64,000 nucleotides of DNA from an uncultured Actinomycetes bacterium. GTDB taxonomy: Bacteria; Actinomycetota; JAICYB01. The stretch spans positions 1,947,846 through 2,011,845 of the forward strand of contig CAWBKS010000001.1 of NCBI GenBank assembly GCA_963789445.1, in the 5' to 3' direction. The translations under genes and the position numbers were made by a program. Shown piece by piece: positions 36,038 through 44,861 of the stretch; the stretch's first letter is position 1; each line of letters opens with the position of its first letter. Under the pieces are notes generated by a model, which was given only the letters and a program-made list of their open reading frames with translations, had not been told where the DNA came from and made no database searches.

Positions 36038-37191
36038 TGGCCAATCCCTGCGCCGTCATCGGCATCGGCCAGACGAAGCACGACACGAAGCGTGAGGACT
36101 GCTCGCAGATCGACCTCGTGCGAGAAGCCGCGAACGCGCACTCCGGGACGCCGACCTCACGTGGAAGGACATCGACGCCGTCGTCATCGGCAAAGCTCCC
36201 GACACCTTCGAGGGCGTGATGATGCCCGAGACTCTTCCTCGCCGACGCGCTCGGCGCCGTCGGCAAACCGATGATGCGCGTTCACACGGCGGGCAGCGTC
36301 GGTGGATCCACCGCGCTTGTCGCGGCGAGTCTCATACAAGCCGGCGTGCACGATCGCGTGCTGACCGTCGCCTACGAGAAGCAGTCCGAGTCCGACGCCA
36401 TGTGGGCCTTGTCGATGCGCATACCTTTCTCACCGCCGCTGGTCGCCGGTGCCGGCGGCTACTTCGCCCCGCACATCCGCGAGTACATCAGGCGATCGAA
36501 CGCGCCCGACGACATCGGGATCAAGGTTGCGGTGAAGGATCGCCTCAACGGCGTGAAGAATCCGTACGCACATCTGCACCTACCGGACATCACTTACGAA
36601 GAGGTCCGCGACTCGCTGATGCTGTGGGCCCCCATCCGGTATCTCGAAACGTGCCCATCTTCGGACGGAGCTTGCGCGCTGGTGCTGGCAAGTGAGTCGG
36701 CGGCCAAGGCACCGACGCCTCCGGCGTGGGTACACGGCACGGCCATGCGCTCGGAACCAACGATGTTCGCGGGACGCGACGAGGTGAACCCCGTCGCCGG
36801 ACAGGAATGCGCCCGCGACGTGTACAAGCAAGCCGGCATCACGGACCCGCGCAAGGAGATCGACGCGGCGGAGATCTACGTGCCCTTCAGCTGGTTCGAG
36901 GCGATGTGGATGGAGAACCTACACTTCGCCCCGGAGGGTGAAGGCTGGAAGATGACCGACACCGGCGCAACCGCCATGGACGGCGACATGCCGATCAATC
37001 CATCCGGCGGAGTGATGTGCTCGAACCCCATCGGAGCTTCGGGGATGCTTCGATTCGCGGAGGCGGCCATGCAGGTGCGCGGACAAGGCGGCGAGCATCA
37101 GATCGACGGTGCTCGGATCGCGATGGGCCACGCGTACGGTGGCGGATCGCAGTACTACGCGATGTGGATCGTGGGAGCCGAGAAGCCCTAA
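36037..37191 (+). CDS. ltp3: Ltp3-like thiolase-fold aldolase subunit (frameshifted)
   Basis: RVHTAGSVGGST, EKQSES, CPSSDGA, YVPFSWFE, GHAYGGGSQ. Confidence 0.75.
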
Positions 37192-38009
37192 CCTGCGTGC
37201 ACTACCGAGGTCGCGCCTCGGCGCACGAGCGCAACAACAGCGAAGAACGCCGCACAGGCAAGGACGATCGTTCCACCGGGAGCCAGAGCCCAGACGCGAG
37301 CGGCCGTCAGTCCAACTACGACTGATCCAATCCCGATCACAACCGACCATCGCATCGTGCCCCTGAAAGATTTGGACAGTAGCTGCGCCGATGCGACCGG
37401 AAGCACCATCAGTGCGGCGACCAGCAGCAGACCGACGATGCGCATAGCGGCCACGATCGTGACTGCCGTTAGGGCGGCGAGCATCAAGTTGAGCGCTCCG
37501 GCGGGCACCCCAGCCACGCCTGCCCATTCTTCGTCCATGACCAACCCGAACAAGGCACGACGTGTGAATGCGATCGTCGACAGAACAACTGCACCGAGGA
37601 CGGCGATCGTTGCCAATTCGCCGCGATCGACGAAGAGGACGGATCCAAACAGATAAGAAAAAACACCGGCGTTGAACGAGTCGGCGAGTCCTAAAAGAAC
37701 GACCCCCCCGGCTATCCCCGAATAGAAGAACAGCGCCAGCGCCACGTCCCCCGTCGCCTGAGCCCGAGCGCGCAATCGCTCCATCGCTATCGAAGCGATC
37801 ACGGCGAGCACGAGCGCCGTCCAAACCGGCTCGGTGCGTAGCAACAGGCCGGCCGCCACGCCGGCGAACGCGACGTGGCCGATGCCGTCACCCATGAGCG
37901 ACATGCGCCGCTGCACGAGGAAGGTTCCTATCAACGGCGCCGAAGCTCCAACGATCACACCAGCGGCCAGCGCCAGCTGCATGTATTCGCGGTCGAAGGG
38001 CCACGGCAT
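37188..38009 (-). CDS. znuB: Zn ABC transporter permease
   Basis: RRMSLMGDGIGH, YLFGS, VGLLLVAAL; hydrophobic. Confidence 0.85.
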   Translation of the reverse strand: MPWPFDREYMQLALAAGVIVGASAPLIGTFLVQRRMSLMGDGIGHVAFAGVAAGLLLRTEPVWTALVLAVIASIAMERLRARAQATGDVALALFFYSGIAGGVVLLGLADSFNAGVFSYLFGSVLFVDRGELATIAVLGAVVLSTIAFTRRALFGLVMDEEWAGVAGVPAGALNLMLAALTAVTIVAAMRIVGLLLVAALMVLPVASAQLLSKSFRGTMRWSVVIGIGSVVVGLTAARVWALAPGGTIVLACAAFFAVVALVRRGATSVVHAG

Positions 38010-38011
38010 CG

Positions 38012-38773
38012 CTATCTGAGCTCCTCGAGCCAAGCCGGGAGGTCCTCGGCGTGCACACCCAGGCTCACGCCGGACTCGATCAGCTGTTGCGGGGTTCCGT
38101 CGAAGCGGATGCGATTGCGCAACACGATCACGCGATCCAGATCGGAGGCCACCGACCCAAGCTCATGCGAAACGAGCAGGACCGTCCCATCATGCGCACG
38201 TACGTGATGGACGAGCGCGTCGCGGAAGCGGGTCTGAGCTTCGGTGTCCACTCCGGCGATCGGTTCGTCGAGAACGAGTAGCTCCGGCTCGCTGGCCAAC
38301 GCGCGGGCGATGAACGCCCTCTGCTGCTGCCCGCCGGACAGCTCACTCACACGCCGATCACGCATCGACTCGAGTTCGACGATCTCCAACGCGTGCGTGA
38401 TGGCGCCCCGATCCTTGTTGCCCAAACGCCTCCACCAACGGCCTCTCGCCAGACGACCCGTCGTTACGACTTCTTCGACGGTCGCCGGGAGACTGGCGGC
38501 CAGTTGAGGCCTCTGTGGGACATAGCCGAGTCGCCATCTTTCCTCGAACCGATCCGGACCGTTACCGAATAACGTCGTGCTGCCGGCGGTCGGCCGGAGC
38601 AACCCGAGCAACACCCTTATAAGTGTCGACTTGCCCGAGCCGTTGGGGCCCACCAAGGCGACGAACTCCTTGCGCTCGACCCCCAGAGAGACGTCTTCGA
38701 GCACGAATTCGCCGTTGTAAGCGAACGAAACGCCGTCGGCGCTGAGCACAGATGCCGGCGCGATCACTTGCAC
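38012..38773 (-). CDS. znuC: Zn ABC transporter ATP-binding protein
   Basis: GPNGSGKS, LSGGQQQR, LVLDEP, VSH. Confidence 0.85.
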   Translation of the reverse strand: MQVIAPASVLSADGVSFAYNGEFVLEDVSLGVERKEFVALVGPNGSGKSTLIRVLLGLLRPTAGSTTLFGNGPDRFEERWRLGYVPQRPQLAASLPATVEEVVTTGRLARGRWWRRLGNKDRGAITHALEIVELESMRDRRVSELSGGQQQRAFIARALASEPELLVLDEPIAGVDTEAQTRFRDALVHHVRAHDGTVLLVSHELGSVASDLDRVIVLRNRIRFDGTPQQLIESGVSLGVHAEDLPAWLEELR

Positions 38774-39654
38774 CCCAGACCTGCGCGCAGTGCCTCGAGG
38801 TTCTCGCGCATAACGCTGGCGTAGTCCTCACCGTTCCCGATCTGATCAGGTGTGAGGCCTTCGATCGGATTCAACGTTGCGACTTGGGCTCCCGTTTCAC
38901 GGGCCAGGGTCCGTGCCACCTCTTCGGACACAAGGACTTCCGCAAAGATCGTTGTCACGCCATGCTCCTTGACGAGATCGCTCAGCTCTGACAGATGCTC
39001 GGGATCGGGCTCCGCTTCGGGCGAAATCCCCGCGATCGACTCCTGTTGCAAGCCGTACCGCGTCGCCAAGTAAGCGAACGCGCCGTGGCTTGTGACGAGC
39101 AAATGACGGTCACAAAAGCCGAGTCCTTCCTCGAATTCCTCATCGAGCTCTTCGATCCGGTCGGCGTACTCTCGGGCGCCGTCCCTGTAGCCGTCAGCGT
39201 TGTCGTCGTCGGCCTCGGCCAGAGCAACGGCGATCCGCTCGACAGCGGCGGCCCACCGCGGAGGATCGAGCCAGATGTGGGGATCGACAGCATGCTCCTG
39301 CGCAGCCGCTTCCCGCAGGTCTTCGCCTTCGAGCAAGTCCAGCGCTACGCCCTTGGCCTGGTCCACCGCCTCTTCGAGCGCCGGCTGGAATCCACGACCG
39401 AGGTAAAGGACAACATCGGCGTCGATGATGTCATCCAGCTGATCGGTCGTTAGCTCGATGTCATGCGGCTCGGCTCCCGGCGGCGTCAGATTCTTTACCT
39501 CGACGCGATCGCCACCGATCTGCTTTGCCGCCTCGGCCAGAGGATAGAAAGCGGCAATTACCGAAAGATCCCCCGAAGCGCTCTTGGGCCCGCCTTGGGA
39601 GCAGCCGACAACGACGAGCGCGAGGACGATCCCCCCGAGAAGCAGCCGCCGCAT
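38764..39654 (-). CDS. znuA: Zn ABC transporter substrate-binding lipoprotein
   Basis: Lipobox VVGC, EPHD, DPHIWLDP, HGAFAY. Confidence 0.85.
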   Translation of the reverse strand: MRRLLLGGIVLALVVVGCSQGGPKSASGDLSVIAAFYPLAEAAKQIGGDRVEVKNLTPPGAEPHDIELTTDQLDDIIDADVVLYLGRGFQPALEEAVDQAKGVALDLLEGEDLREAAAQEHAVDPHIWLDPPRWAAAVERIAVALAEADDDNADGYRDGAREYADRIEELDEEFEEGLGFCDRHLLVTSHGAFAYLATRYGLQQESIAGISPEAEPDPEHLSELSDLVKEHGVTTIFAEVLVSEEVARTLARETGAQVATLNPIEGLTPDQIGNGEDYASVMRENLEALRAGLGCK

Positions 39655-39668
39655 CTCCGTCTTTCGTT

Positions 39669-39689
39669 GAATGAGAATGATTATCGATA
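39669..39689. promoter_or_regulatory. Zur box
   Basis: GAATGAGAATGATTATCGATA, AT-rich palindrome between divergent znuA and zur. Confidence 0.7.
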
Positions 39690-39702
39690 TACAATAGCAG
39701 CC

Positions 39703-40131
39703 ATGGCACCCAGATCCGCCAACCGCCAGGAAGTCCGGGAGATGCTGGAACGCGCCGGCCTACGTCCGACTCGCCAGCGCGTCGCGGTTATCGACGCCTT
39801 GAGAGCACGCCCCGAAGCGGTGACGGCGCAGGATCTCCATCACGAGTTGCGGCGGTCGTCCGGTGCACCAGGACTTGCAACGATCTATCGGACTCTCACC
39901 GCCCTAAGCACATCAGGCGATCTGGACACCTTCCCGAAGGAAGGCGAGCAAGCCTTCCGGCTGTGCGGCCCCGACCACCACCACCATCTCGTGTGTCGTT
40001 CGTGCGGGTCTATCGAAGAGGTGGGTGCCGAGGCGGTTGAGTCATGGGTGAAGCGCGTTGCACGGCAGCGACGCTTCAAGGTGCTCGGCCACACGGTTGA
40101 CGTCTACGGACTCTGCGCCGCCTGCGGCTAA
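39703..40131 (+). CDS. zur: Zinc uptake regulator (Fur family)
   Basis: TRQR, GLATIYRTL, HHHHLVCRSCG, GLCAAC; divergent from znuACB. Confidence 0.85.
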   Translation: MAPRSANRQEVREMLERAGLRPTRQRVAVIDALRARPEAVTAQDLHHELRRSSGAPGLATIYRTLTALSTSGDLDTFPKEGEQAFRLCGPDHHHHLVCRSCGSIEEVGAEAVESWVKRVARQRRFKVLGHTVDVYGLCAACG

Positions 40132-42239
40132 CTCAGCGCTTTGAGGGCGTCCTCCAACGTGCTGACACCCACGACATCGAGTCCCGACGACCTCGCGTCA
40201 CGCACCTCGTCCTCGGGGACGAGGAAAAGCTCCGCTCCCGCTCGCTTTGCAGAGATCGCCTTCTCCTCGAGACCTCCCACAGGCCCGACGCGGCCGTCCA
40301 GATCGATGGTGCCGGTAGTGGCCACGTCGCGGCCGTCGGCAACGTTGGCGTCCTTTATCAGGTCGTAGATGGCAAGCGCATAGGCAAGACCGGCGGACGG
40401 GCCTCCGATCTCTCGCTCGCGGAAGGTCACGTCGAAGGGCAGCTCGACGTCGAAGTCACGGGTCTCCAGGAACACGCCCACTCCAGGTGCTCCCTCTACG
40501 ACGCCGGCCCGGCTCTTGAGCGTCACAGTTCGTTCGCGCTTGTCGCGGTCGAACGTGATCTTGAAGCTCGTACCCTGAGGCCGGTTGCGGATAGGGCGGC
40601 CAACATCGTCGGCTAGACGAACGGGTTGTCCGTCCACTTTGGTGATCACATCGCCTTCCTTCAGGACGCGCGCTGCGGGCGCTCCGGGAATGAGTGCGGA
40701 AACGATCGCCCCGGTTCCCTTTATGTCGACCTCCAGTCCGGCCGCTTTCGCGGCGGCCGCGGCGGCGATCCGCTGCGTTTGCTGGAAGAGCGTCCTCTGC
40801 TCTTCGAAATACTGGTCGGCATCGACACCGCGGGGGACGAGGTTCGAGATGGGAGTGATGTCTCTTCCTTGCATGACTGCGAACAAGAATCCGAATCCGG
40901 TCGGTTGCTGAACGGCAACCGATGTCAATAGGAACCCGCCGTCCACAGGGTCGGTCTTCATTCCGCGGATGCTGATGTCTTCGGACACGTCGAAGGACGT
41001 CCCAGGCCGCAGGACGACCACCGGTGGCTGATAGAAAAGTCCGACGGCGATCACAACGGCGGCTATGCCCAGGATCCATAGAAGCGGGCCGCTGCGACGA
41101 CGCGGAGTCGTCACCTCGTCGGTTCCCCGGATTCGCTCGAGATCCATGGCCCGGCCTATGTCCGACGGCGAGATGATCCCGACGAGCCGCCCGTCGTCCA
41201 AAACCGCGGCACGTCCCGGTCCCTTCTGCAAAGCGATGGCGGCCTCGGTCACTTCGCTGTCCGGACGCAATACGACTACCTCATCAGCCGGGAGCATCAC
41301 GTCGCGGACGAAGGTCGTCGGTCTCGCCTCTGCCGGAACGCGGCCCGCCTGACGAAGAGAAACCATTCCCAGTAGCCGCCCATCGCCAACTACCGGATAA
41401 GTGGAATGGCCGCGCATGTGAGCAACGTCGTCGATGAACGAAGTGATGGACAGGTCGGCATCGACCACCTCGGGGTCGGGTGTCATCAGATCTGCGACGT
41501 GGCGCCCACCGAGTGACTGACGGAACTGCGCGTATGCGACCTCGGATTGCGCAGCCTGCATCAGGAACCAGCCGATGAATACGAACCAGATACCGCCGGT
41601 ATTCGCACCCGTAACGAACTGAAGGATCCCAACGACCATCAATCCGATAGCCAGCACTCTGGCCAGTCGCGCAGCGCTCACCGTCGCTGCGCCATAACTT
41701 CCGCCTCGGTGCCAAAGGTAGGAACGAAGCACTCGCCCGCCGTCGAGCGGCAGTGCCGGGATCATGTTGAAGGCAAGCAGGACGAGATTTATTCGGGACA
41801 GGTAGTCGACGACTCCGACGACGGGAACGGCAAGCCCCGCGGCGTCGAACGCGGCTCGAATACCGAGGAACACACCAAAGAGGACGGCCGTAACGGCGGG
41901 GCCGGCGATCGCGATCCGGAACTCGGCCCCCGCCGAAGGAAAGTCGCCTTTGAACTTCGCCACGCCCCCGAAGATCCAGAGCGAGATGCTCTCGATCTCC
42001 ATCCCTTCGCGCTGAGCGCGAAAGGCATGCCCGAGCTCGTGAAGGATGATGCAGCCGAAGAAGAGAACGGCGGTGATGATGCCCATCGCCCAGTACGTGC
42101 TTGAGTCGAGGTCGTGGTAGGTGCGCGGGAAGTAACCGGTCGCGAACGACCACGCGAAGAGCGCGAAGACGAGCAGCCAGGACCAGTTGGCGCCGATCCT
42201 GATCCCCCGGACGCGGAACAGCGTGAAAGAGGATTCCAT
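40128..42239 (-). CDS. Fusion: site-2 protease (M50) + CBS pair + TM + PDZ + Lon-type (S16) protease domain
   Basis: HELGH, AGP, FNMIPALPLDGG; CBS repeats; GAPAARVLKEGDVITKVDG; GGPSAGL and GGLEEK; one continuous ORF. Confidence 0.85.
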   Translation of the reverse strand: MESSFTLFRVRGIRIGANWSWLLVFALFAWSFATGYFPRTYHDLDSSTYWAMGIITAVLFFGCIILHELGHAFRAQREGMEIESISLWIFGGVAKFKGDFPSAGAEFRIAIAGPAVTAVLFGVFLGIRAAFDAAGLAVPVVGVVDYLSRINLVLLAFNMIPALPLDGGRVLRSYLWHRGGSYGAATVSAARLARVLAIGLMVVGILQFVTGANTGGIWFVFIGWFLMQAAQSEVAYAQFRQSLGGRHVADLMTPDPEVVDADLSITSFIDDVAHMRGHSTYPVVGDGRLLGMVSLRQAGRVPAEARPTTFVRDVMLPADEVVVLRPDSEVTEAAIALQKGPGRAAVLDDGRLVGIISPSDIGRAMDLERIRGTDEVTTPRRRSGPLLWILGIAAVVIAVGLFYQPPVVVLRPGTSFDVSEDISIRGMKTDPVDGGFLLTSVAVQQPTGFGFLFAVMQGRDITPISNLVPRGVDADQYFEEQRTLFQQTQRIAAAAAAKAAGLEVDIKGTGAIVSALIPGAPAARVLKEGDVITKVDGQPVRLADDVGRPIRNRPQGTSFKITFDRDKRERTVTLKSRAGVVEGAPGVGVFLETRDFDVELPFDVTFREREIGGPSAGLAYALAIYDLIKDANVADGRDVATTGTIDLDGRVGPVGGLEEKAISAKRAGAELFLVPEDEVRDARSSGLDVVGVSTLEDALKALS

Positions 42240-42276
42240 CAATGTTTCTTATACAAGGCCCGACGGCTGGTGGCGT

Positions 42277-42708
42277 CTAGTCGTCCAGCTCGACGCGCCT
42301 TTCGCGCTTCCGGCGCGAGCGGAGCCGCTTCTCTTGAAGACGGCGCTCCCGCGCCGCCTTGCTCGGCCTGGACGGCCGTCGCTTCGGCGGTGGGGGCTTC
42401 AGAGCATCCGCCATCAGCTTTCGGAATCGCTCTACCACGGCCTCTCGGTTGGCCCCTTGGGTCCGTGACTCCGAGGCAACGATGTGCAGCTTCCCGTCGG
42501 AGTCCAGTCGAGTAGCCAGCCGCTGAAGCGCACGTGATCGCTGGACCGGGCCGAGCGACGGCGAGCCCGCGACGTCGAAGACCAACTCCACCTGCGTCTC
42601 GCGTCGATTGACGTTCTGTCCGCCGGGCCCTCCGGACCTGGAGAACTTGAACGAGATCTCGCGTCCCGGTATGACGCAGGAACGACTGACGCGGACGTCG
42701 TCCGTCAC
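42277..42708 (-). CDS. arfB: Alternative ribosome rescue factor B (peptidyl-tRNA hydrolase)
   Basis: [11 protein letters not shown] and basic C-terminal tail. Confidence 0.9.
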
Positions 42709-42709
42709 G

Positions 42710-44807
42710 CTAAGACGACGCGAGTCGCTGCAGGGCCTCGGCGATGTCGGAGGACTGAGGAAGGATCGCGTCCTCGAGCGTGGGTTCGTATGCCACCCAG
42801 GTGTGCTTGGCTCCCACGCGCATCACCGGGGCATCGAGGTCCCAGAAGCAGTGCTCGGTCACCCAGGCCGAGATCTCGGCCCCCATGCCGAACTCGAGGA
42901 TGTCCTCGTGCACGACGAGCAGCCGTGAAGTCTTGGCCACCGATGCCGCCACCGCTTCCTGATCCCAGGGCCAGAGCGAACGCAGATCGATCACTTCGAC
43001 CGACAAGCCCTGTGACTTCTCGAGCTCCCGCGCGGCCTGCATCGAACGTTGCACGGTCGCGCCGTAAGTGACGAGCGTTATGTCCGTCGCCCGGACTCGC
43101 AACCGCGGCCTTGCCCAGCGGGATCTTGTATTCGGCGGGCGGGAACGGATCGCGGTTGTACATCTGCCGGTACAGGTGCTTGTGCTCGAGGAACAGGACG
43201 GGGTCTTCGCACTCGAACGCGGTGCGAAGAAGCCCCGCGGCGTCTCGCGCGCGTGAAGGCATCACGACGAACAGGCCCGGTGTGTGCGTGAAGATCGACT
43301 CACCCGACTGCGAGTGCCAGATCGAGCCGCCCTGCAAGTAGCCGCCGATCGGTACCCGCAGCACCATCGGCACCTTGAATCCGCCGTTGGAACGCCAGCG
43401 CGTCGTCGCGGCCTCGGTGCGGATCTGCTGCATGGCCGTCCAGATGTAGTCGAAGAACTGGATCTCCGGCGACGGACGCAAGCCTCGGATCCCTTGTCCG
43501 ATCGCTCTGCCGACGATGTTGGCCTCGGCCAGCGGTGTGTTGAAGCAGCGGGCCATCCCGAATTGCCGCGTTAGTCCGTGCGTGATCCCGAACACTCCGC
43601 CCTTGCCCGGGCACGTGCTCGAGCTTCTCGAGCGATGCAGCGTCCGCCACGTCCTCACCGAAGACGCGCACGCGTTCGTCGCGCTCCATCACCTCGTGCA
43701 ACGTCAGACGGATCGCCTCTCCGAACGTGACGACCTCCCCTGTTCCGGCATCGTCCGGTTCGATCACTTCCGGCAGCGGTCCGGTGATGTTCTCGAGCAC
43801 CGTCGCCGGATCGGGACGGCGCGCAGCCAGAGCTTCGTTGGCGGCCTGGACGACGTGAGCCTTGGCATCGTCCCTGATCTGCTTGGCTTCGTCGGGCGAA
43901 AGCATCCCGGCCTGGACGAGCTCGCGCTCCAGCTGGTCGATCGGGTCGTACTCCTGCTCCTCGGCCAGCTCTTCGGCAGGCCTGTACTTGCGCTGATCGT
44001 CGGATAGAGAGTGCGAGTACGGCCTCGTCACGATCGCGTGGATCAGCCCCGGTCCCTCACCGGCGCGCACACGCTCGATCGCCTTCTTTCCCTTCTGCCG
44101 CACCTCGAAGTAGTCGCGTCCGTCCATCTTGTGGATCGCCAGGCCGCGGAAGCCGCGCACGAGCTCGGAAACGGGAGCCGGGTGCTGGTCGTCCGAAGGG
44201 ACGGAGATCGCATAGCCGTTGTCGGCAACGACGAACAGGACGGGCAGGTGCAATGTGCACGCCGTGTTGAGCGCTTCCCAGAACTCGCCTTGCGAGCACG
44301 CCCCTTCCCCGAGCGACACATACGTGAGCTCGTCGCCGTACGCGGTACATCCGGGAAGATCGCGACGGACGATGTACCGCGAGGCTTCGGCACAGCCGAC
44401 CGCCGGTATGCACTTGGCTCCCCGTCGCCGACGACTCGGTGACGACGTTCAGGTCGGGGAAGCTCCAGTGGCACGGCATCTGCCGGCCGCCGACGCCGGG
44501 TCGTCCGCCGAACCGACGGCCTGCAACAGCAACGTCTTCGCGTCGACGCCCATTCCGAGCATGAGCGCACCGTCGCGGTAATAAGGAAAGAACCAGTCGT
44601 AACCGGACGCAGGTATCGCATGAGCCCGAGGTAAAGCGCTTCGTGGCCGGCGCCCGAGATCTGGAAGAACACCTTCGATTGCTGACGCAGGACGATCTCT
44701 CGGTCGTCGATCGCGCGTGAGATGCATGCGAGCCGGAAGTCTTCGATGGCTTCGTCCGCGGAGACCCCGCGGTGCTTGCGAGCGGCCCGAGTCTGAGCCT
44801 TAGCCAT
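42710..44807 (-). CDS. 2-oxoacid dehydrogenase E1 alpha/beta fusion (frameshifted)
   Basis: [19 protein letters not shown]...DNGYAIS, HSLSDD, FNTPLAE, EIQFFDY, FLEHK, EVIDLR. Confidence 0.85.
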
Positions 44808-44861
44808 CGAACTGAGCCTACTGCCGAAAGAGCTACCGCCGAGCGAAGTGAGGCGGCAGCA

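Follow-up and report, generated by a model that had tools for sequence, protein, structure and literature searches.

The activity of SpoIVFB, the CBS-bearing M50 site-2 protease (S2P) of Bacillus subtilis sporulation, is controlled from the opposite side of the membrane by the PDZ-bearing serine proteases SpoIVB and CtpB, which release it by cleaving SpoIVFA/BofA. Outside sporulation, we know of no substrates and no triggers of CBS-type S2Ps. This work concerns a gene in which a protease of this kind is joined to a second protease. It lies in a window of 64 000 nucleotides (the whole stretch of DNA analysed) from an uncultured Actinomycetes bacterium (assembly GCA_963789445.1, contig CAWBKS010000001.1, positions 1,947,846 to 2,011,845 of the forward strand), and its product consists, in order, of an M50 site-2 metalloprotease core, a CBS pair, a further transmembrane (TM) helix and a PDZ-bearing Lon (S16) protease. 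The natural substrates of archaeal CBS-type S2Ps are given as unknown in a passage of the SpoIVFB cryo-EM paper (PMC11486902), the domain organisation of the PDZ-Lon protein YlbL is called unique in a passage of its description (PMC6051672), and the relevant part of a survey of microbial PDZ proteins treats RseP and PDZ-Lon as separate families (PMC6411480).

The fusion gene is encoded on the minus strand, which an earlier note on this DNA had left unstated; the plus-strand reading is full of stops. The single uninterrupted open reading frame (ORF) of about 703 aa claimed in that note was borne out, as positions 40128..42239 translate to 703 residues and a stop. The ORF list reaches one codon further, to a TTG at 42242, but the ATG at 42237-42239 is likely to be the start because homologues begin with the same MESSF... 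sequence. The features of the gene and its product, protein P0001, are given below. Counts of invariant residues refer to the 120 fused proteins listed, P0001 included, among the 566 matches of a word-indexed search of 5.8 billion proteins, and structural features refer to an AlphaFold2 (AF2) model, with confidence expressed as the predicted local distance difference test (pLDDT).

40128..42239, minus strand: fusion gene, 703 codons plus a stop at 40128-40130, encoding P0001
41511..42239, minus strand: M50 (site-2 protease) membrane core, residues 1-243, with six TM helices and a re-entrant β-hairpin at residues 81-97
42027..42041, minus strand: HELGH zinc and catalytic motif, residues 67-71 (H67, E68, H71), invariant in 120 of 120 sequences
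41739..41768, minus strand: NMIPALPLDG motif, residues 158-167, with D166 as third zinc ligand; N158, P161, P164 and D166 invariant in 120 of 120
41127..41507, minus strand: tandem CBS pair (Bateman module), residues 245-371, predicted cytoplasmic; PF00571 in two stretches
41091..41126, minus strand: basic linker GTDEVTTPRRRS, residues 372-383, of low confidence (pLDDT below 50 for residues 373-381)
41034..41090, minus strand: seventh TM helix GPLLWILGIAAVVIAVGLF, residues 384-402; hydropathy peak 2.41, the highest in the protein; AF2 helix 384-402
40740..41033, minus strand: N-terminal sub-domain of the PDZ-Lon module, residues 403-500, within the SepM-family profile and outside Pfam Lon_C; AF2 mixed β/α, pLDDT 70-90
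40515..40721, minus strand: PDZ domain, residues 507-575; Pfam PDZ_2, PDZ_6 and PDZ
40131..40514, minus strand: Lon (S16) proteolytic domain, residues 576-703; Pfam Lon_C at 53.2 bits (cutoff 21.1) and matches to solved Lon protease domains
40389..40403, minus strand: GPSAG, residues 613-617, coordinates checked
40395-40397 and 40260-40262, minus strand: Ser-Lys dyad, S615 and K660 (the latter ending GGLEEK), both invariant in 120 of 120

The motifs named in the earlier note (HELGH, NxxPxxPLDG, the further TM helix, GPSAG and GGLEEK) were all found at checked coordinates, and its domain calls agree with Pfam, in which M50, CBS, PDZ and Lon_C each matched above the gathering score. Peptidase_M50 (PF02163) scored 61.4 bits (cutoff 27.2), CBS (PF00571) 57 bits in two stretches (cutoff 24) and PDZ_2 34 bits (cutoff 27), and the Pfam scan gave no match to an AAA+ ATPase module. 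In a sequence search of the PDB, MjS2P (3b4r) matched the M50 core at an E value of 1.6e-22, and the solved PDZ domain of B. subtilis YlbL (2kl1) matched that of P0001 at 1.4e-7. The RseP model TIGR00054 reached only 27 bits, in the PDZ region alone, against a cutoff of 147.55, and by this model the protein is not of the RseP type. The NCBIfam model NF041438 (SepM_fam_S16) aligned residues 388-682 of P0001 to profile positions 5-297 of 340; its equivalog cutoff of 200 bits was not reached by the whole protein (125.3 bits) or its C-terminal part (128.3 bits), nor by a stand-alone PDZ-Lon protein of the same genome (134.8 bits) or a paired copy from another family, f8 (89.3 bits). By these profile scores, the fused, stand-alone and f8 paired PDZ-Lon modules scored are SepM relatives and not equivalogs. 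Both halves clearly belong to known superfamilies, the CBS-bearing M50 proteases and the YlbL/SepM-like S16 proteases, but no named protein has either of them as an equivalog.

Both catalytic centres are strongly conserved. H67, E68, H71, N158, P161, P164, D166, S615 and K660 do not vary across the 120 aligned fused proteins, and the catalytic motifs of both proteases were present in all 24 fused loci examined; invariance of both sets indicates that selection keeps both proteases active. The NxxPxxPxDG motif was also found in 12 of 12 M50-CBS genes paired with a PDZ-Lon gene and in 90 of 90 solo M50-CBS loci. Within the CBS pair, the motif G354/S357/D360 is conserved, with G354 and D360 invariant and S357 retained in at least 90 % of the 120 sequences.

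Whether the chain is genuine was considered against the alternative that a mis-assembly, a lost stop or a frameshift joined two neighbouring genes. Such an error is made conceivable by the state of the assembly, which comprises three contigs at 75 % completeness and has frame breaks nearby, and by the occurrence of split adjacent forms in other families. The earlier note had argued from a lack of visible frameshifts in the surrounding 37-42 kb; the fusion ORF is indeed unbroken, but the next-but-one gene is not:

42713-44810, minus strand: E1 dehydrogenase (α-β fused), in four frame pieces (-3, -2, -3, -1), with breaks near 44604, 43606 and 43090

Its relatives at loci L020 and L022 are single ORFs of 699 and 744 aa, and the broken gene is either a pseudogene or owes its breaks to indel errors in the assembly. 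For the fusion gene, an artefact is effectively refuted. The same unbroken chain is shared by 14 other surveyed genomes and by 119 further database proteins of diverse origin, and the linker and TM7 align without gaps in close relatives. An independent soil-metagenome contig of 220 nt (40960-41179) crosses the junction between the CBS pair and the TM helix with six mismatches and no gaps. Coverage by sequencing runs consisted of short pieces, amounting to small shares of the gene, in five soil-metagenome contig sets from two studies; no RNA set was listed, and the pieces other than the one across the junction are uninformative on integrity, expression and habitat. The fusion ORF is not an assembly artefact, and its combination of domains exceeds chance by far, because 119 other listed full-length homologues share its architecture, and the proposal of two complete protease domains in one genuine chain, with both catalytic centres conserved, was thus upheld.

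The 119 homologues are 659-755 aa long, share 49-84 % identity with P0001 at 99-100 % query cover and have the same domain order; precomputed domain matches to M50, CBS and PDZ were present in 120 of the 120 listed proteins and to Lon_C in 116. An exhaustive search of 1.84 billion representatives of clusters at 50 % identity gave about 20 whose alignment runs unbroken across residues 1-702. Sources were given as 'MAG: Actinomycetota bacterium', 'uncultured Actinomycetes', 'Acidimicrobiaceae', 'Acidimicrobiia' and a 'Marmoricola sp.' MAG, and product names as 'site-2 protease family protein' or 'CBS domain-containing protein'. Full-length, stop-free fused copies were found in 15 of 401 sampled Actinomycetota genomes (eight in family f1, four in f2, one in f49 and two in f63), and two more copies were interrupted by contig ends. 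Four of the genomes with a copy are unpublished (G225 and G147 with full-length, G335 and G082 with partial copies); without them, 13 full-length genomes remain and the conclusions are unchanged. The class of the window's organism is represented by ten genomes, all in family f1, of which eight carry the fused gene. For most Actinomycetota in this survey the two halves are separate genes, as the earlier note had stated to be normal. That note had also allowed that the architecture might prove common and already characterised. It does recur in databases, but no characterisation was found in the literature: full-text searches of about 8.1 million openly licensed PMC papers and 0.36 million bioRxiv preprints, the coverage of which does not extend to subscription journals, gave no description of the M50-CBS-PDZ-Lon fusion or of its operon.

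Several variants were seen alongside the typical form. Genome G379 contains two fused copies (L032 on contig C53 and L034 on contig C77), 48 and 41 % identical to P0001, respectively. A relative of the PDZ-Lon half, P0247 (542 aa), has a cyclic-nucleotide-binding domain (PF00027) ahead of PDZ and Lon_C, in place of M50-CBS. The ESM Atlas lists a 620-aa M50/PDZ/Lon cluster (score 0.84) whose commonest phylum is given as Chloroflexota; the phylum is unconfirmed and the cluster is a lead only. The genome of the window itself also possesses a stand-alone PDZ-Lon gene (L002, G000:C3:96951-97904), whose product of 369 aa has 38 % identity to residues 390-702, and a shorter M50 match (L003, G000:C1:632668-633465) that ends at query residue 291 in an open frame of 299 aa; no second M50-CBS gene was found in it with the whole-protein query.

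The same two modules also occur as adjacent genes. In at least 33 of 61 genomes of family f8, a PDZ-Lon gene comes directly after an M50-CBS gene on the same strand, and several of these genomes have two pairs; the pairs were counted by hand among the 150 matches listed of 202, and the figure is a lower bound. In the complete f8 genome G052, the stop of the M50-CBS gene overlaps the GTG start of the PDZ-Lon gene as GTGA. One further pair was found in family f50. The paired proteins retain all catalytic residues. A complex prediction for the split f8 pair, made with two alignments of 33 rows each and with no controls run, gave 0.00 and 0.01 against a mark of 0.32, which speaks neither for nor against binding. 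At 72 solo M50-CBS loci, no PDZ-Lon gene was present within the flanks examined (up to 3 kb). Long open frames (460-1030 aa) at some solo M50-CBS genes were considered as other fusions and rejected, as the HExxH motif lies far from the N-terminus and there is no PDZ-Lon match; they are interpreted as frames prolonged upstream for want of stop codons, as is typical of GC-rich DNA.

Phylogenetic trees were reconstructed for each half. In the PDZ-Lon tree (careful search, 48 rows by 326 columns), the paired and fused forms (40 rows) were split from the ordinary stand-alone genes (eight rows, including L002) with support of 100/98, and the paired forms (93/93) and fused forms (100/99) were sister clades. 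In the M50-CBS tree of 78 rows, in which every third Thermoleophilia-type solo was retained, the fused forms were monophyletic at 100/99 in the careful tree. The quick tree placed them as sister to the Thermoleophilia-type solos (Shimodaira–Hasegawa-like approximate likelihood ratio test, SH-aLRT, 98) and put the paired forms, together with one solo row (L140), in a separate clade (SH-aLRT 99). One PDZ-Lon lineage is thus dedicated to M50-CBS partners and has been joined to two M50-CBS lineages. New here is that the adjacent-gene form of f8, with its sister PDZ-Lon clade, links a specific PDZ-Lon clade to M50-CBS proteases. Together, the fusion and the neighbourhood pattern constitute a classical signal of functional coupling, and such coupling of the two proteases is therefore well supported.

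The AF2 model of P0001 had a mean pLDDT of 84.3. Its M50 core comprised helices at residues 19-40, 46-77 (which includes HELGH), 103-134, 138-158, 182-210 and 215-243, with a β-hairpin at 81-97; beyond it came the CBS pair (about 245-371), a disordered stretch (373-381), a helix (384-402) and a mixed domain, in which the PDZ occupies 507-575 and a Lon fold extends to the C-terminus. In Foldseek searches with this predicted model, the M50 core matched MjS2P (3b4r_A; E value 2.3e-11, target TM-score 0.82), the CBS pair matched the CBS tandem of the Archaeoglobus S2P (5g5r and 5g5x; TM-score 0.83-0.86), and SpoIVFB was also among the matches; in the sequence search of the PDB, SpoIVFB (8vjl) matched at an E value of 4.7e-5. 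TM7 is the counterpart of the N-terminal anchor in SepM/YlbL-type proteins, the SepM profile aligning from residue 388, and an RRR cluster just before it fits the positive-inside rule.

Since six helices precede the CBS pair and the RRR cluster precedes the seventh, the PDZ-Lon module is predicted to lie outside the cell and the CBS pair in the cytoplasm. Hydropathy alone resolved only part of the M50 helices, and the topology rests on the AF2 model and homology. According to the cryo-EM study of SpoIVFB (PMC11486902), SpoIVFB and MjS2P have one common TM topology, and SpoIVFB's CBS domain is located beneath the cytosolic side of TM4-6. YlbL was judged extracellular in a part of PMC6051672, where it acts on the N-in/C-out single-pass membrane protein YneA, and this would agree, by analogy, with the outside position of PDZ-Lon in P0001. 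The arrangement in the earlier note, with CBS inside and PDZ-Lon outside, is therefore supported as a prediction by the likeness of the model to MjS2P, the Archaeoglobus CBS tandem and SpoIVFB, by the SpoIVFB topology and by the RRR cluster.

It is likely that the M50-CBS and PDZ-Lon modules cooperate in some way. The best reading, in which confidence is evenly divided, is that of a bifunctional membrane-spanning protease in which PDZ-Lon and M50 form a two-site trans-membrane unit. Six helices of the M50 core would hold an active site towards the cytoplasmic leaflet, and the seventh would carry the chain out and set the ATPase-free PDZ-Lon module (Ser615-Lys660) on the outer face of the membrane. 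Both catalytic modules would operate as a single unit, with bitopic (N-in, C-out) membrane proteins as substrates: the ectodomain would be recognised and trimmed by the outer PDZ-Lon in a site-1-like cut, and the M50 core next to it would then cleave the leftover TM stub, by which a cytoplasmic fragment would be freed for signalling or the stub cleared. The CBS pair would probably position the interdomain linker or sense a nucleotide, as proposed for SpoIVFB-group enzymes; gating by adenylates or cyclic di-AMP, as put forward in the earlier note, is speculation, the observations being a canonical CBS fold and the conserved G354/S357/D360 motif. An order of site-1 and then site-2 cleavage would fit the predicted topology, and the chances that the two modules act sequentially on the same substrate are about equal either way. 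A complete pathway of regulated intramembrane proteolysis in one polypeptide, with a site-1 cut by PDZ-Lon as outside sensor-protease, a site-2 cut by M50 and a cytoplasmic CBS gate, is possible but somewhat less likely than not.

Several points weigh against the two-site unit. SpoIVFB-group S2Ps need no site-1 cut of their substrate. The pTM (predicted TM-score) of the AF2 model was 0.58, which leaves the inter-domain arrangement of P0001 uncertain. One genome of the window's class is 100 % complete and has no fused copy, and two stand-alone PDZ-Lon genes with no M50 within 2.5 kb fall inside the fused clade. No detectable CBS pair is present in the fused M50-PDZ-Lon variants P0143 (604 aa), P0133 (636 aa) and L102:3001-4947, although in L102 the loss looks secondary because this locus groups inside the fused clade in both trees. 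An approximately unbiased (AU) test rejected a joint clade of the fused and paired M50-CBS sequences (P = 0.0077), a grouping chosen a posteriori from the tree; the M50-CBS halves are not one lineage, the coupling therefore arose twice or partners were swapped, and the two forms need not work identically. No conserved sigma factor, anti-sigma factor, small membrane protein or other partner gene was found beside the fused or paired genes. Finally, the purified YlbL ectodomain is reported to be inactive as a protease in vitro in the biochemical part of PMC6051672.

Two other divisions of labour between the halves were weighed. The outer PDZ-Lon could do the work by processing or degrading proteins or peptides of the envelope, in the manner of YlbL and SepM, with M50-CBS serving mainly as its anchor and as a cytoplasmic sensor that tunes it, and any M50 substrates being unrelated. 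The cyclic-nucleotide-binding domain of P0247 stands just where M50-CBS would be, the PDZ-Lon clade has joined two different M50-CBS lineages, fused forms devoid of CBS occur, and YlbL functions without a known S2P partner as far as the account in PMC6051672 goes, all of which would suit this arrangement. A mere anchor, however, would lose the HExxH and NxxPxxPxDG motifs, which are invariant in the 120 fused and in 12 of 12 paired M50-CBS proteins, and all partners found except that of P0247 are M50 proteases; this explanation is therefore considered improbable.

The PDZ-Lon module might instead activate the M50 protease to which it is attached, removing an inhibitor or the enzyme's own lid on an envelope signal, rather than cutting the M50 substrate, as SpoIVB and CtpB cut SpoIVFA/BofA. 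The M50 half falls into the CBS-bearing SpoIVFB/MjS2P group, whose best-known member is controlled in this manner (abstracts of PMC9042235 and PMC6242693); PDZ domains, too, are often signal sensors, as discussed for DegS in a passage of PMC6051672. Against this, no BofA- or SpoIVFA-like neighbour is conserved at the examined loci and no cleavable lid is marked in the sequence, and a built-in activator of this kind is thought unlikely to be the explanation.

The surroundings of the fused gene are conserved only among close relatives. Two features border it in the window.

42277..42708, minus strand: RF-1-domain (ArfB-like) gene upstream of the fusion gene (Pfam RF-1), separated by 34 nt from the listed ORF and by 37 nt from the ATG
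37188-40131: Fur-family regulator (plus strand) and znuA/ABC ATPase/ABC-3 permease operon (minus strand), between a thiolase-like gene and the fusion gene

The RF-1-domain gene is probably co-transcribed with the fusion gene. It adjoins the fusion gene in the window and at five of 15 related loci and lies about 2.4 kb off in a sixth, and is syntenic only within f1, in which the order is E1 dehydrogenase and RF-1-domain genes upstream on the same strand, the fusion gene and then the thiolase-like gene. A scan of 39900-42900 gave no promoter-like sites and three terminator-like sites, against 1.6 expected. The Pfam match of the Fur-family regulator covers only residues 98-215 of its 222-aa ORF, and its true start is probably later. 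The Fur and znuABC genes occupy this position only in the window's genus, other f1 members joining the thiolase and fusion genes directly; a functional tie of zinc uptake to the zinc protease was considered and dropped because these genes are absent there outside this genus (g1). No common neighbours were found at nine fused loci of other families.

Genes around the f8 pairs (L164-L173) included a class-I glutamine amidotransferase, an AMP-binding ligase, a sortase, crgA, a polyprenyl synthase and sometimes baeRF, a neighbourhood that presumably resembles a conserved actinobacterial cell-division/envelope region. These neighbours were examined as substrate leads, and none was evident as a substrate. 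A baeRF-family gene lay beside the M50-CBS gene at three of ten f8 loci (L169:7208-8497, L170:3770-4963 and L173:3641-4078). The recurrence of release-factor-like neighbours (RF-1-domain and baeRF) may be chance.

The fusion is of moderate to high interest for the field of intramembrane proteolysis. YlbL-type PDZ-Lon proteases are poorly understood. A conserved fusion and operon of these two families lead to a concrete and testable hypothesis for both, that of one trans-membrane proteolytic unit, and the single-chain form is a convenient object for studying how an extracytoplasmic cut is handed over to an intramembrane protease. If a complete pathway of regulated intramembrane proteolysis does reside in one polypeptide, no earlier natural fusion of site-1 and site-2 proteases would precede it. 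The module would then be of sufficient age to occur in two forms, fused in four or more actinobacterial families and as an operon with translational coupling in f8 and f50, and a common physiological role would be given to CBS-type S2Ps, long orphans, and to YlbL-like proteases of actinobacteria. Three points limit the significance of the fusion: both domain families are well known, the bacteria have not been cultured, and neither a substrate nor a phenotype is in view.

Close counterparts of P0001 are the f8 and f50 pairs, which agree with it in their two modules, in the order of these and in the catalytic residues, and have a PDZ-Lon module from the sister clade. They differ in being two polypeptides with an M50-CBS protein from another branch of the tree, and are uncharacterised as well. 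Among described enzymes, MjS2P (3b4r) and the CBS tandem of the Archaeoglobus fulgidus S2P (5g5r and 5g5x) are the best matches for residues 44-208 and 250-388, respectively. Like P0001, the archaeal CBS-type S2Ps have a six-TM core followed by a CBS tandem, but they end after the CBS pair, with neither a seventh TM helix nor a second protease. SpoIVFB is likewise an M50 intramembrane metalloprotease with C-terminal cytoplasmic CBS, and its core matches that of P0001 by sequence and fold, but it has a single CBS domain in place of the tandem pair. Its triggers also differ, being separate S55 and S41 proteases that cut inhibitors and not the substrate, whereas P0001 has an S16 Lon-type domain attached via TM7.

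RseP of Escherichia coli, which forms the classical site-1/site-2 cascade with DegS, resembles P0001 in combining M50 and extracytoplasmic PDZ in one chain and, according to the passages on it in PMC9401612, PMC7593790 and PMC6411480, acts after the PDZ-bearing serine protease DegS. Its PDZ domains, however, are non-catalytic filters, it has no CBS pair, and DegS is a separate S1 protease. The C-terminal part of P0001 is matched in organisation by YlbL of B. subtilis, SepM of Streptococcus mutans and Rv3194c of Mycobacterium tuberculosis, which consist of a TM helix, PDZ and Lon, with a Ser-Lys dyad (S234/K279 in YlbL, as given in the mutational part of PMC6051672) and no ATPase. These proteins are stand-alone and of about 340-370 aa, whereas the PDZ-Lon module of P0001 is joined to an M50-CBS protease and belongs to a clade apart from the ordinary stand-alone actinobacterial copies.

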